Positions 1 to 3,905 of a DNA stretch of 27,133 nucleotides are shown one piece after another. Origin of the DNA: Minisyncoccota bacterium. Its GTDB lineage: Bacteria; Patescibacteriota; Minisyncoccia; UBA6257; 2-01-FULL-56-20. The stretch's first letter is position 1. Each line of letters begins with the position of its first letter. The DNA lies in contig DATJQA010000029.1 of the NCBI GenBank assembly GCA_035506115.1, positions 1-27,133 on the forward strand, read 5' to 3'. Below the pieces are notes generated by a model. That model was given only the letters and a program-made list of their open reading frames with translations. It ran no database searches and had not been told where the DNA came from. The position numbers and the translations under genes were made by a program.

Positions 1-2706
1 GTAGAAGTCTCGAACGGAACCTGCTTTGTCGGCGAACCAGATATACGTTAAAGCGTTAGCTGGCGGAGTCGCTGGCATTCCATTGTTATAAATAATCTGC
101 TCAATGGTTGCTCGAATCGTCTGGCCGATACCAATGGTCCGCACAGTAAGTGCCGCGGTATTACCCGCCTCATCGCTTACAGCGTAGACTGTCCGGACCG
201 GGCGGAGCGATCTAAAGCCGAGCAGAGCAGCAGGCAGGAGCGTCGCGCCATCGTCATCGCTCATCTTCTGTTGGAGATCGTCAAAGGCATCGCCGAAAAT
301 ACTTTTCGCGGGTAACGAAGTTGTTGAAACTTTCGGCTCCTGGGTTAGGTTATCGAGACCGCGAACAACGATCGATCTTTTATCAACGTCCCAACCGATC
401 TCCGCCTCCGGCGGGGTTTTGTCTATTTTGATAGTAGAGCTTTTCGCGTCTTCAACATTTCCGGCCACATCCTTCGCTCGATAAAAAATGCTCTGCGCTC
501 CCTCTGTGGAAATAACTATCGGCTGACTATACTTCTGCCAAGTCGACTCGTTGTCGAGAGAATATTCAATTGACGACACACCGCTCCCGCCTTCATTGTC
601 TTCGGCAGAGAGCGTCGCGGTGACATCGGAAACATACCAGCCGTTCAAGCCGGCGGTACCAGAAATGTTTACGGTCGACATGGGCGGAATTGTATCAACC
701 GGCGCGATAACAGTCGAGGAATTTTGTGGGTCCGCGATGTAATCGACGATCTTGCCAGTCTCAATCGTGCCGGTCACCTCAGCAGTATGACCATCACCGT
801 TATCGTCGTAAACCAAGCCTCCGATCGTGTATGACCCTTCACCGGTGCCGATGACCTTAATGTCATATTTTCCCGGTTCGGTTTGGGGAATATAAACAAT
901 TTTCTTTTCGTGAACGGAACCAGGCGGCAATGGTTCGTCGCTTGAAATAATGGGCCCCTCAAGAGAATAATTCGCTCTGGGTATTTCCGCGTAATCCGTC
1001 CCCGAAACAGGGTCTCTACCGATACGCCGACCGGACGGGTCAGTAATGAGAAGTTCCGCCGGAGAAGCGATGTAAACAGTCATCGAGCCGAGAATGTCAA
1101 CGGGTGATGCGTGATAGGAAAACAGGTTAGCTTTATCGAATTCGTTGTTATAGGCCTGAATATTATTCGCGAGATTCTTTGTTTCGTCCAGGCGTTTTGT
1201 ATTGAACCAGAGCGGATCATTGATAAGATATGTGAACTGGTCTGGGGCTTTTTGGTACTTATTCTTGAGAACGAAGTAGTGGCCGTAAGTAGCGCTATGA
1301 CCGATAGCCGGTTTGTTGTCTCCTAGATATTGGTCTATCAAGGCGCCTCTTGTTGCCGATGAGGCATTGTGATAGTCAAGTGTTAAATGGTTTTTCTTTT
1401 TTCCGGCGCTAACGTTTCCAAGATATTCGACGGCCTTACTCCACCACAAGGAACCGGAAGCGTTATAGCCGTCGTTAGAGGTTAGCCAATTATTAATGCC
1501 CAAAGGGCTGTTATCAGAATTGTCTATCCCGATGTTAAGGCCGTAATACCTTCCGACCATGACCATAGACGTAATAGCACATCCGCAACGCCTTATGGTC
1601 GAGTTTGTGGTGCCATTTTCATAGCAATCTTTATAGGAACCGCTACCGTACAACAAAGAGGCCCATTGTGATGTAAGAATCGCAGATGGATAATCGGAAA
1701 TTACTTGCGTATACAGTGGCACCGTATGCACCGTGAAATCACCGCTGCCGAGTGCGCCGTATTCCTGCCAATCCGAAGCGAGATTTGTCACCGTATCCAC
1801 CGCCCGGGCGCGCCAGCGATATTGACCGTCAGGTAGATCTGAGACCGAAGTGGTCGCCTGACTGCCGGGTAGAACAGGCCCGCTCGTCGCGTTCGCAACT
1901 CCGGAAAAAGAGGTGCTCGTCGTGTATTCAACTTCCAATCGAACTTGATTAGTCGAAGATGACTGGAGCGTCGCCCCGAATATCACCTCATCTTCCATGG
2001 TCGTGTCGCCTTCAGCAATTTCAGTTAGGGCATCTGAGTGATACTGTTTCAGATCCCCGATAGACGGCGGCTGGCTTGGCTCTCCGGTCAGCCTGATGGC
2101 CAATTCCTTATTCGTGTACTCCGTCCAGCCTACGGGATAAAAAGCGTATGTATGATATTCCCAATATGATGAATACGAATATTCGTCTGCGCTCCGCACA
2201 ACCGATAGATACATGGACTGAAACGGGTCGTATTGCGAACGACTGAACTGGAACCAGTAGGTCGTGCCAGCCGCAAGGTCAAGACAGGGGTCCAGGGCAA
2301 ATTCGGCGTAGTCGCTCTGGTTCGTCGGCAAAAACGCAGCTGGGACAAGAACGCTCGCGAGAACGGCGCTGCCTGCTCCGCCCGGCTCGGCGCCGTTCTG
2401 GTAGACAGTAAGTACGACGCTGTCGGTCTGTTGATTCATCCGCCTAACCCTGTGTCCGACCGAACAGATACGCTGGTTTTCCGGCGGGATGTACTTCTCG
2501 GCAATAACATCGATGCCGGTCACTATGCCGCGGCCCCAGCCGAGATCATACATCGAATCGGGAAAGGCGCCGTGAACCTCGAAGATGGTCGGACCGAGCG
2601 CAAGCGTTGTCGCTGGTCTGAACAAAACTCCGCCGACCACAAAGGCCAGCGGCAGGAGAAATCCGCAGAGCAGGGTCATCGGACTGTGGCAGCGTCCGAA
2701 AGACAT
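1..2706 (-). CDS. Large secreted/surface protein with a peptidase C39-like domain and Ig-like beta domains; 3' end lies outside the window (>=902 aa)
   Basis: Manual translation from ATG 2706 (MSFGRCHSPMTLLCGFLLPLAFVVGGVLF..., hydrophobic N-terminus) stays open to base 1; absent from the ORF track because it has no stop in the window. Papain-fold motifs: PLYTQ (Q334), CGCAITSMVM (C376), GHYFV (H476), LINDP (D497). Ig-like segments: YRWRARAVD and GLNGWYVSDVTATLSAEDNEGGSGVSSIEYSLD...YRAKDVAGNVE...IDKTPP. Confidence 0.85.
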   Translation of the reverse strand, partial: MSFGRCHSPMTLLCGFLLPLAFVVGGVLFRPATTLALGPTIFEVHGAFPDSMYDLGWGRGIVTGIDVIAEKYIPPENQRICSVGHRVRRMNQQTDSVVLTVYQNGAEPGGAGSAVLASVLVPAAFLPTNQSDYAEFALDPCLDLAAGTTYWFQFSRSQYDPFQSMYLSVVRSADEYSYSSYWEYHTYAFYPVGWTEYTNKELAIRLTGEPSQPPSIGDLKQYHSDALTEIAEGDTTMEDEVIFGATLQSSSTNQVRLEVEYTTSTSFSGVANATSGPVLPGSQATTSVSDLPDGQYRWRARAVDTVTNLASDWQEYGALGSGDFTVHTVPLYTQVISDYPSAILTSQWASLLYGSGSYKDCYENGTTNSTIRRCGCAITSMVMVGRYYGLNIGIDNSDNSPLGINNWLTSNDGYNASGSLWWSKAVEYLGNVSAGKKKNHLTLDYHNASSATRGALIDQYLGDNKPAIGHSATYGHYFVLKNKYQKAPDQFTYLINDPLWFNTKRLDETKNLANNIQAYNNEFDKANLFSYHASPVDILGSMTVYIASPAELLITDPSGRRIGRDPVSGTDYAEIPRANYSLEGPIISSDEPLPPGSVHEKKIVYIPQTEPGKYDIKVIGTGEGSYTIGGLVYDDNGDGHTAEVTGTIETGKIVDYIADPQNSSTVIAPVDTIPPMSTVNISGTAGLNGWYVSDVTATLSAEDNEGGSGVSSIEYSLDNESTWQKYSQPIVISTEGAQSIFYRAKDVAGNVEDAKSSTIKIDKTPPEAEIGWDVDKRSIVVRGLDNLTQEPKVSTTSLPAKSIFGDAFDDLQQKMSDDDGATLLPAALLGFRSLRPVRTVYAVSDEAGNTAALTVRTIGIGQTIRATIEQIIYNNGMPATPPANALTYIWFADKAGSVRDFY

Positions 2707-2715
2707 AATGCCTAT

Positions 2716-2744
2716 TTTATAGCGCTCCCGAAGAATCACGTCAA
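2716..2744 (-). promoter_or_regulatory. Predicted sigma70 promoter of the C39-like gene
   Basis: TTGACG (2744-2739), 17 bp, TATAAA (2721-2716); ATG 9 nt downstream; no SD. Confidence 0.6.
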
Positions 2745-2772
2745 ACAGCTAATTTTTATCCCTTAAATCACC

Positions 2773-2814
2773 TAAAAACATTCTCAAATTCTTAAGAATT
2801 TGAGAATGTTTTTA
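2773..2814. repeat. Perfect 42-bp palindrome (copy A)
   Basis: TAAAAACATTCTCAAATTCTT|AAGAATTTGAGAATGTTTTTA; checked base by base; centre 2793/2794. Confidence 0.97.
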
Positions 2815-3085
2815 TGAACGAGACGAATGTTTTCCCGTATGGAGAAAGGGAGTGTTCGACGGCGTGACCGCGATAACGTTTCTCCACGAGCCCGGCTTGA
2901 GCAAGTCGGCGAACATGTTCCGCAACCGTCTTGAAATTCCCGCCCACCTCCTTCGTGATGCCTTCCACTGTCATTCCTTTTTGGTTGGCAATTAGAAGCA
3001 ACGCCTCAATGCGCCAATGATTTGCCACGCCCTTGAAATGCCGCTCTAACTGTCGCGCCGTTTTCGTTTTCTTCGGTCCGATCAT
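2792..3085 (-). CDS. ArsR/SmtB-like winged-helix transcriptional regulator (97 aa)
   Basis: ANHWRIEALLLI...MTVEGIT...VAEHVRRLAQAGLVEKRYRGHAVEHSLS fits the ArsR wHTH pattern; no Cys, so no classical alpha3 metal site. Confidence 0.85.
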   Translation of the reverse strand: MIGPKKTKTARQLERHFKGVANHWRIEALLLIANQKGMTVEGITKEVGGNFKTVAEHVRRLAQAGLVEKRYRGHAVEHSLSPYGKTFVSFIKTFSNS

Positions 3086-3091
3086 TTTTTT

Positions 3092-3120
3092 ATTTTACCG
3101 TCTTCACAATATATTCTCAA
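3092..3120 (-). promoter_or_regulatory. Predicted sigma70 promoter of the HTH gene; -35 lies inside palindrome B
   Basis: TTGAGA (3120-3115), 17 bp, TAAAAT (3097-3092), 6 nt, ATG 3085. Confidence 0.7.
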
Positions 3121-3145
3121 ATTCTTAAGAATTTGAGAATATATT
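3108..3145. repeat. Perfect 38-bp palindrome (copy B); 28-bp core identical to copy A
   Basis: AATATATTCTCAAATTCTT|AAGAATTTGAGAATATATT; shared core ATTCTCAAATTCTTAAGAATTTGAGAAT at 2780-2807 and 3113-3140. Confidence 0.97.
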
Positions 3146-3179
3146 TAATCTTGGGAATGCACGCTTAGACCAAAGTACG

Positions 3180-3209
3180 AACCCCACACCTATGAGTAGG
3201 TGTGGGGTT
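3180..3209. terminator. Intrinsic terminator-like hairpin
   Basis: 13-bp stem AACCCCACACCTA/TAGGTGTGGGGTT, 4-nt loop, directly after the stop of 3210..3401. Confidence 0.75.
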
Positions 3210-3401
3210 TTATGAATGGAAGAGCTCGGCGTAGCCCATCACCTGAGCCAGTATCAGACGGCATTCCGGACAGCGCAGGATGTTGCCCAGCATCTCGGCG
3301 GCATCATGCGCCTCTATTTCGAACCCGCAACCGCAGTTCGGGCAGTCGAACTTGTCGCCGGCCTGAACGAACCTGGTCGGCGGGCGCCGCAGGATCTTCA
3401 T
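3210..3401 (-). CDS. Small zinc-ribbon protein (63 aa)
   Basis: CPNCGC...CPEC; GGGAGGTG SD with GGAGG 6 nt before ATG; extended -10 TGgTAAGAT at 3440-3432; downstream hairpin. Confidence 0.7.
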   Translation of the reverse strand: MKILRRPPTRFVQAGDKFDCPNCGCGFEIEAHDAAEMLGNILRCPECRLILAQVMGYAELFHS

Positions 3402-3457
3402 TCGTCACCTCCCAAGTAAAATGACCACTTTATCTTACCACAGGAGACGCTCAAGAT

Positions 3458-3492
3458 AAAAATAACGATGGGGCGCCTTGTTAGGGGCGCCC
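3458..3492 (-). terminator. Intrinsic terminator
   Basis: Stem GGGCGCC/GGCGCCC (3471-3477, 3486-3492) followed on the minus strand by TTATTTTT; downstream of 3518..3805. Confidence 0.6.
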
Positions 3493-3517
3493 CGTTTCTT
3501 GGTGGACCGCATCGGCG

Positions 3518-3805
3518 TCAGTCAGCGTGGGTCGGCGCGCTCGCCGGCCAGCCGCGCTCCGGTTGCTGCTCGCTCCTCCGCACGCAGCTGCTGCAGGCGT
3601 AGCTTTCGCAGGCCTCGCAGAACCGACCCTCGCGCGGATAGGTGAACCAGTCGCCGCACTGCCGACACTTCCGACGCGTTTCGAGCGACGGCTTCTTCTC
3701 CTCCGCGTGCCGGCGGCAGATCCCCTCCCCGCAGTAGATGCACCTGTGGCCTTCTCTGGGGAAGATGAACCAAACGCCATCGACCACGCACTTCAAGGAC
3801 TCCAT
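3518..3805 (-). CDS. Cys-rich protein with two tandem zinc-finger-like repeats (95 aa)
   Basis: Repeats KCVVDGVWFIFPREGHRCIYCGEGICRRH and KCRQCGDWFTYPREGRFCEACESYACSSC; AAGGAGGG SD with GGAGG 8 nt before ATG. Confidence 0.75.
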   Translation of the reverse strand: MESLKCVVDGVWFIFPREGHRCIYCGEGICRRHAEEKKPSLETRRKCRQCGDWFTYPREGRFCEACESYACSSCVRRSEQQPERGWPASAPTHAD

Positions 3806-3905
3806 TAAGATACCCTCCTTCTGACTCCATCTTTACCACACTATCCCCACTTCCGTGAAGCGGACTTCACTGGACGGGCCGCCCGCCGGGCGTAAAATTG
3901 AAGCT

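Follow-up and report, generated by a model that had tools for sequence, protein, structure and literature searches.

What is the meaning of a small regulator gene whose two ends are marked by perfect palindromes sharing one and the same core? The question is raised by a 27,133-nucleotide stretch of DNA from a Minisyncoccota bacterium (GenBank assembly GCA_035506115.1, contig DATJQA010000029.1, positions 1 to 27,133), which we call the window and in which positions 2773-3145 hold a short gene for an ArsR-type helix-turn-helix protein together with two long palindromes. The original prediction described this arrangement as a self-contained cassette, in which the palindromes would either be operators, through which the protein loops or silences its own gene and influences a peptidase gene downstream, or be the recombination sites of a minimal mobile module. 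We hypothesize that the locus is a cognate repressor-operator module, a member of a family found throughout the Parcubacteria class, and that its operator is portable; on the sequence comparisons presented here, we consider this reading probable.

Anatomy of the locus

The argument rests on the following elements:

2773-2814: downstream palindrome, 42 bp, with arms 2773-2793 and 2794-2814 of 21 nt, 100% complementary and loop-less
2792-3085, minus strand: regulator gene, 294 bp including the stop codon, for a 97-residue protein assigned to the ArsR/SmtB winged-helix fold by Pfam, NCBIfam, PDB, AF2 and Foldseek
3092-3097, minus strand: -10 box TAAAAT, 6 nt before the regulator ATG
3115-3120, minus strand: -35 box TTGAGA, within the gene-proximal arm of the upstream palindrome
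3108-3145: upstream palindrome, 38 bp, with arms 3108-3126 and 3127-3145 of 19 nt, 100% complementary and loop-less

The coordinates bear out what had been claimed for the palindromes. An identical 28-bp core is found in both (2780-2807 and 3113-3140, an exact match), the dyad centres are 333 bp apart, and each copy has private outer arms, AATAT/ATATT extending the core upstream and TAAAAAC/GTTTTTA extending it downstream. The exact 28-mer occurs only twice in the organism's own genome (671 kb, 73% complete; G000), and none of 100 dinucleotide-preserving shuffles of the window contained a match to it, even when up to three mismatches were allowed. Each half of the core contains two 8-bp units with ATTC/TTCT, giving four units in direct-direct-inverted-inverted order. 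The 294-bp ArsR-type gene also stands, with Pfam support, but it does not lie strictly between the palindromes as had been stated: its 3' end overlaps the downstream copy, which encodes the last six codons of the regulator and its TAA (KTFSNS-stop), with the stop codon at the dyad centre.

In the promoter scan, the regulator promoter TTGAGA-17-TAAAAT matches the consensus at 10 of 12 positions. Because the -10 box is only 6 nt from the ATG, the regulator mRNA is predicted to be leaderless or nearly so and to have no Shine-Dalgarno sequence. When folded as RNA, the downstream palindrome forms an 18-bp hairpin (-27.3 kcal/mol, z = -6.9) that is followed by a run of U residues. The ordinary terminators of this genome are GC-rich A-tract/T-tract hairpins that are unrelated in sequence to the palindromes, and for this reason the AT-rich, loop-less palindromes form a class of their own. 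The GC content of the cassette (0.437) falls in the lowest 1% of genome windows, and GC at third codon positions (GC3) is 0.55 in the regulator gene versus 0.71-0.86 in its housekeeping neighbours. A TrpRS-like gene elsewhere in the genome is preceded, at a distance of 6 bp from its start, by another AT-rich palindrome of 42 bp (C41:5175-5216); this one belongs to a different sequence family and might serve some other regulator as its operator.

The regulator resembles ArsR/SmtB proteins and has no metal site

The regulator scores above the Pfam cut-offs for both HTH_5/ArsR (24.7 bits, cut-off 22) and HVO_A0114 (27.8 bits, cut-off 27.6), and below the cut-off of 55 for an NCBIfam ArsR/SmtB subfamily model (37.6 bits); a sequence search of the PDB returned 2kko, an ArsR-like protein (E = 0.0015). 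An AlphaFold2 (AF2) model built on 36 homologues has a predicted local distance difference test (pLDDT) score of 90.8 and shows the expected helix-turn-helix, wing and C-terminal helix, with helices at residues 10-34, 40-47 and 51-63, two strands, and a last helix at 82-95. The top Foldseek matches to this model are 2kko, CzrA, SmtB, SqrR and HlyU, at template-modelling (TM) scores of 0.65-0.72, with MarR proteins ranking after them. The sequence matches are weak but agree with one another, and together with the model they point to the ArsR/SmtB winged-helix fold in its full order of elements (α1-α2-α3-αR-β-β-α5), with residues N50-L61 as the recognition helix (NFKTVAEHVRRL).

Reading the sequence for a metal or metalloid sensing site, we found no Cys anywhere in the protein and no His, Asp or Glu ligands in α5 (YGKTFVSFIKTF). 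Because these residues are missing, the regulator would belong at most with the non-metal members of the ArsR/SmtB family, and no effector can be proposed for it. It is a 97-residue DNA-binding fold with no catalytic motif. PADLOC gave only generic winged-helix matches to Csa3/CasR, and Rfam gave nothing above the gathering score, its only matches being sub-threshold ones to generic hairpins (miRNA models).

The site-gene-site layout is conserved

A protein search returned 296 homologues of the regulator at E ≤ 0.001, with Liptonbacteria, Zambryskibacteria, Kaiserbacteria, Harrisonbacteria and other Parcubacteria as their named sources, and the gene is present in 25 of 61 related whole genomes, often as several paralogues. 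The original prediction had proposed scanning the surroundings of homologues for paired palindromes, and pairs are indeed there: across about 31 distinct loci, a long palindrome stands 25-85 bp before the aligned start in 21, a palindrome overlaps the stop codon or follows it by no more than about 26 bp in 24, and both sides are occupied in about 16. Different loci have unrelated flanking genes. The notion of a self-contained cassette is thus upheld in so far as the site-gene-site unit recurs with unrelated neighbours, but the excision and inversion that were attributed to it find no support.

Nearly all homologous loci have a TATAAT-like box after the upstream palindrome, at 18-35 bp from its dyad, and the ATG 6-12 nt after this box; the promoter-operator design is therefore a trait of the family. 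The two copies also differ from each other in a recurrent manner. A run of at least four T residues follows the core in 8 of 25 downstream palindromes of homologues versus 1 of 23 upstream ones. A conserved C-terminal K-T-F is encoded, in many homologues, by the outer arm of the downstream copy, and the mirror image of this arm therefore supplies the T-run. A Zambryskibacteria homologue with 62% identity has AT-alternating flanks upstream and AAAAAC/GTTTTT downstream, as in the window, and the differentiation between the two copies appears to be conserved. In many homologues, moreover, the upstream and downstream copies are different symmetric subtypes.

The palindrome accompanies the protein and varies with its recognition helix

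We searched genomes for the site as a degenerate pattern, ATTC-NN-A-N-ATTCT-NN-AGAAT-N-T-NN-GAAT, allowing up to two mismatches. The pattern occurs 3-16 times in 16 of 41 genomes of the same family, and the reversed pattern 0 times. Among the 33 same-family genomes that were searched both ways, 9 contain protein and palindrome, 3 the protein only (these have variant palindromes), 1 the palindrome only and 20 neither; the single palindrome-only genome is 77% complete. In a sample of 200 genomes of the same class, across which the regulator is patchily distributed (40 of 200), the corresponding counts are 32, 8, 24 and 136 (odds ratio about 23). Sites number 176 in the 32 genomes that have both and 43 in the 24 palindrome-only genomes, and the reversed-pattern control gave 0 sites in 201 class genomes.

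Comparison of the palindrome with the recognition helix, likewise proposed in the original prediction, revealed co-variation. Helices of the type NFKT[IV][SA]EH pair with ACATTC..ACATTCT arms and those of the type NEKT[IL]GEH with CATCCTTACAAACTG arms, in each case in both flanking copies, and forms of helix and site intermediate between the NFKT and NEKT types exist. In the arms, the ATTC and TTCT units do not vary and have a spacing of 8 bp. At positions that do vary, one arm matches the other in 74-95% of sites versus 48-69% expected if they were independent, and this arm symmetry fades about 4 nt beyond the edge of the 28-bp core. One genome can hold several paralogues, with a site subtype for each. 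An identical 28-mer also occurs in several different families, and there are hybrid sites with arms of two types.

Copies occur before unrelated genes and inside proteins

What the original prediction missed is that the palindrome is dispersed and portable. Genomes hold 3-20 near-identical palindromes each. In the organism's own genome a third, related palindrome of 44 bp (C47:4583-4626; L045:1084-1127) lies in frame inside miaA, where it encodes SISYSNVLKNIGIGNV, residues 190-205 of MiaA. The same MiaA loop carries perfect palindromes of other subtypes in three further genomes, all with the regulator (G004, G014 and G005), a 12/16 remnant in a fourth other regulator-bearing genome, and decayed remnants in G001 and G011, while MiaA orthologues from regulator-less genomes have a gap or a decayed remnant at the position of the palindrome. 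The miaA palindrome is thus perfect in 4 of 9 genomes with the protein versus 0 of 11 without a confident protein match, and its subtypes vary among genomes, each still symmetric. Further in-frame copies lie inside mnmA, ychF and a glcD-like gene (G066), with the shared reading frame ..HSNILQNV(G/R)M... With in-frame palindromes in these four unrelated genes, miaA included, and with a gap or a remnant in MiaA orthologues, the copies follow the pattern of Rickettsia-type elements, which are missing from orthologues.

In two site-rich relatives, most copies occupy a short spacer ahead of one or another unrelated gene, at 10-65 bp from its start codon. The genes that follow such solo copies include alr, ddl, rbfA, rplJ, a glycosylase gene, PCMT, a cation-efflux gene, NUDIX and others. 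Plausible -10 boxes follow some solo copies, and several others have no usable -10. A comparison of their flanks detected no target-site duplication and no shared flank beyond the palindrome. The copy upstream of rbfA is a lineage-specific gain, because it was found in one genome of 30. We considered a conserved regulon and rejected it, since the neighbours of solo copies have no common function and the rbfA site is not conserved.

Palindromes of other types were seen in the same comparisons. One type, with a ATTCGCGCGAAT or ATTCGTTCGAAT centre, occurs at L052:2964-2993 and L058:91-120, and a decayed copy of it occupies the miaA loop in G001. In G023, a GC-rich GAATGCGCCACCCGGGTGGCGCATTC-type palindrome directly adjoins ATTC-type palindromes at three loci (L049:7925-7950, L050:2132-2157 and L054:2449-2474); this could be another repeat family, or else a terminator travelling with the ATTC type.

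The locus is fixed in natural populations

Two of the homologues have many identical copies in public assemblies, and each of them keeps to a single context, in 24 contigs for one and 21 for the other, drawn from various samples. Among the 24 contigs carrying the downstream neighbour of one homologue, no allele lacking the regulator cassette was found. The locus is therefore fixed in two natural populations, and neither the symmetry of the copies nor the population contigs give any sign of excision or inversion. An empty site, to which the original prediction had looked for evidence of mobility, did not turn up in clean form in same-genus genomes or in a metagenome scan with the large protein encoded next to the module. 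The Y1 transposase family PF01797 is present in 8 of 41 same-family genomes, unrelated to palindrome content (other recombinase families were not surveyed), and searches for it came up empty in G000, G023, G066 and G020, genomes with 3-16 sites; this missing co-occurrence speaks against a Y1/RAYT transposase as the driver of the copies.

One wetland sequencing run holds the locus, as assembler contigs only; these break at the palindromes, contain no joints, and are uninformative on inversion or excision. In run X1, a 42-bp assembler piece over the downstream palindrome has a depth of 19.8 versus 5.2 in the flank (about 4x). A factor of 2 is due to palindromic words counting double, and the remaining excess may represent further copies in the sample. 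In a Zambryskibacteria population carrying P0039, the contigs L108 and L107 are 99.75% identical, with 8 differences in the 79 bp over the upstream palindrome and promoter (L108:1088-1166) and 0 in the other 3146 bp. The 8 changes break the symmetry, and L108 is either a regulatory variant or the product of an assembly problem at the hairpin.

Neighbouring genes

The module has the following surroundings in the window:

1-2706, minus strand: gene for a large protein, membrane-anchored or secreted, truncated by the end of the window; context only
2716-2744, minus strand: promoter of this gene downstream of the regulator, TTGACG (2744-2739), 17 nt, TATAAA (2721-2716), then 9 nt to the ATG at 2706; identified by eye
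3180-3209, minus strand: GC-rich hairpin of the ordinary terminator type, 3' of a zinc-ribbon gene (3210-3401), separating that gene from the module

The promoter scan omits TTGACG-17-TATAAA because its rule demands a T at position 6 of the -10 hexamer. The downstream palindrome lies upstream of this promoter and does not overlap it, its dyad being about 52 bp upstream of the -35 box. Since the downstream gene has a promoter of its own at this distance, its silencing by occlusion is not supported. The product of this gene, of more than 900 residues, combines a membrane segment at the N terminus with Ig-like repeats and a middle domain that contains Cys, and the GC3 of the gene is as low as that of the regulator gene. 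The protein was taken to be a peptidase, an identification that we could not confirm: a Pfam search gave no significant match, and an Atlas score of 0.81 to C39-like clusters is a weak lead to a C39-like peptidase identity for the middle domain. No relatives of the protein were found in same-genus genomes, and a metagenome scan returned one distant relative, with no regulator beside it. Positions 3518-3805 (minus strand) encode a Cys-rich protein of 95 residues that scores 27.0 bits against Pfam FYVE, just below the cut-off of 27.8. The whole region 1-3850 is not syntenic in same-genus genomes, which share only ndk-aspS-mgtC at 71-75% DNA identity.

A probable repressor with a portable operator, and the rival readings

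We propose that the ArsR/SmtB-fold protein has its cognate DNA sites in the two palindromes that bracket its gene. The operator alternative of the original prediction is supported by the -35 box in the upstream copy, by the like arrangement in homologues and by the co-variation of palindrome type with the recognition helix. An inverted repeat over the -35 box is present and conserved, and we predict that a dimer binds it; as the upstream copy extends over the -35 box and the spacer, RNA polymerase would be kept off the promoter by bound protein, and the result would be negative autoregulation. The downstream copy, when transcribed, would form the hairpin and U-run and probably terminate the short transcript; as DNA, it would provide a second site and might, less certainly, shield the next gene as a roadblock or insulator. 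The four units per site suggest that more than one dimer could be accommodated on each. Solo copies would have spread before unrelated genes and, in frame, into housekeeping genes.

Several observations weigh against this reading. Within the organism's own genome, the miaA site departs from the bracket core at several positions. No functional theme unites the solo copies, some of which lie within coding sequences, and the infB-rbfA copy is present in 1 of the 30 genomes examined; classical regulon logic accounts for neither finding. A clear T-run is found in only about a third of the downstream copies. The spacing between the two copies across loci (306-365 bp) shows no helical phasing (Rayleigh p 0.16-0.9), and fixed-phase DNA looping is not supported. 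Of the 160 genomes without a confident homologue, 24 still carry 1-4 sites. We stress that the genomes compared are related, and that the counts for co-occurrence and co-variation overstate the independent support that they lend.

Two further readings start from the spread of the copies, and we regard both as possible rather than likely. One takes the repressor-operator pair itself to be a replicator, whose palindrome would be copied into promoters and protein loops independently of a transposase, perhaps by way of a hairpin. It would wire unrelated genes to a private repressor, and since copies decay where the protein is not found, the protein would be needed to keep them intact, a corollary that we hold just as tentatively. 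The other, which overlaps the portable-operator reading instead of excluding it and to which we give a minor share of our belief, takes the palindrome to be a selfish, self-spreading mini-element like REP/REPIN or the Rickettsia palindromic elements (RPEs), with the winged-helix gene as a single-copy partner that maintains or tames the copies or helps in their copying, and with autoregulation as a by-product. Much of the distribution would suit a selfish element: the number of near-identical copies per genome, their position before unrelated housekeeping genes and, in one shared frame, within miaA, mnmA, ychF and the glcD-like gene, the unique rbfA-upstream copy, the patchy occurrence in the class, the identical 28-mer across several families together with hybrid two-type sites, and the low GC and GC3 of the cassette. 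RAYT genes, too, are flanked by cognate repeats (PMC3337134). Against such an element, the 97-residue protein has no catalytic motif, Y1/RAYT does not co-occur with the palindrome and is not seen in four genomes with 3-16 sites (G000, G023, G066 and G020), solo copies show neither target-site duplication nor shared flank, identical regulators keep one context in all 24 and 21 contigs, and copy numbers are far below those of REPs.

Three other explanations were weighed. That the palindromes are site-specific recombination sites, dif/pdif-like or attC-like, which move, excise or invert the regulator gene, was the second alternative of the original prediction; it would fit a gene with the same site at both ends, neighbours that vary between genomes and the lack of synteny over region 1-3850, but each copy is symmetric through its private outer arms, whereas a central crossover would leave hybrid, asymmetric sites. 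The two copies are often different symmetric subtypes in homologues, perfect palindromes carry no orientation information, and the upstream copy has a clear promoter role; with the locus fixed in populations, 0 gene-less alleles among 24 contigs, no joints in the one run that holds it (contigs only) and no Y1 co-occurrence (other recombinases not surveyed), we consider this explanation extremely improbable. It is hardly more plausible that the palindromes are nucleic-acid structures only, terminators or mRNA stabilisers with no dedicated protein, beside which the regulator is a coincidence. The strong RNA hairpin, and the A-tract/T-tract flanks by which the downstream copy resembles the genome's own bidirectional terminators, speak for such a role, but ordinary terminators here have GC-rich, unrelated sequences, conservation of the ATTC/TTCT units throughout the class goes beyond what pure structure needs, the palindrome co-occurs and co-varies with the protein, and the upstream copy precedes the transcription start. 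A chromosome-organising system like parS/ParB, matS/MatP or Noc might likewise have from a few to 20 palindromic sites per genome, some of them in coding sequences and with no regulon theme; against it stand the several paralogues with their own site subtypes in one genome, the patchy class distribution, the lineage-specific turnover of sites and the fixed relation of the site to the protein's own promoter, and we think it very unlikely. We retain the repressor with a portable operator as our working model.

Comparison with known systems

Gene regulation in the candidate phyla radiation is almost untouched by experiment. The system described here offers a protein of fewer than 100 residues, a defined site of 28-46 bp, a predictable promoter and many natural specificity variants, and the module can be tested without cultivation of its host, in vitro or in E. 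coli. If the operator is indeed portable, a regulator would gain target genes through the copying of its site, and palindromic DNA would prove to be writable into essential proteins such as MiaA.

Searches of the literature on HVO_A0114, on palindromes in Parcubacteria and on in-frame palindromic elements yielded no description of this system. Its closest described counterparts are the ArsR/SmtB autorepressors, REPIN-RAYT, the RPEs and promoter reuse. With autoregulated ArsR/SmtB repressors (SmtB, CzrA and CadC, and the non-metal HlyU, SqrR and SdpR) the module shares the fold, the small size and an inverted repeat over the gene's own promoter. It differs from them in having a regulator without metal or thiol sensor residues, a second copy of the site at the stop codon, a predicted leaderless mRNA and dispersed sites, including some in coding sequences. 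The usual ArsR/SmtB operator is an imperfect 12-2-12 repeat, whereas the site here is a perfect palindrome of 28-46 bp made of four ATTC/TTCT units spaced by 8 bp. In pdif modules and integron cassettes, as here, copies of a short site stand on either side of a gene; those sites are asymmetric and have a tyrosine recombinase as partner, whereas ours are symmetric through their private arms, the locus is fixed, and no recombinase was identified as partner (integrase co-occurrence was not surveyed).

The RPEs are elements of about 150 bp with no known cognate protein (review PMC10969869). They resemble the present copies in placing palindromic DNA in frame in loops of unrelated housekeeping proteins, and they differ in that the element here is 32-46 bp long, tied to a regulator gene and mostly intergenic. 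In promoter reuse by putative mobile promoters (PMC3575422), a promoter-associated sequence likewise recurs before unrelated genes, but here only the operator-sized palindrome is copied, flanks are not shared, and several copies have no usable -10.

The REP/REPIN-RAYT systems come close in their organisation: RAYT genes are single-copy and flanked by cognate palindromic repeats that are also scattered genome-wide, and the pairing of protein and repeat is specific, with several pairs per genome (PMC3337134, PMC3116915). The A/T-run flanks of REPs suggest their co-option as terminators (PMC3337134). Our module agrees with these systems in having a single-copy partner gene flanked by cognate repeats that are dispersed in the genome as well, in the specific pairing of protein and repeat, with several such pairs in a genome, and in the A/T-run flanks. 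The partner, however, is a winged-helix protein and not an HUH/Y1 transposase, PF01797 showing no co-occurrence; copies number 3-20 versus hundreds, the palindromes are perfect and loop-less, and in-frame copies are tolerated. If the portable-operator reading is correct, the idea of a long-lived partnership between repeat and protein, developed for REPINs and RAYTs, would extend to a non-enzymatic partner, a transcription factor.

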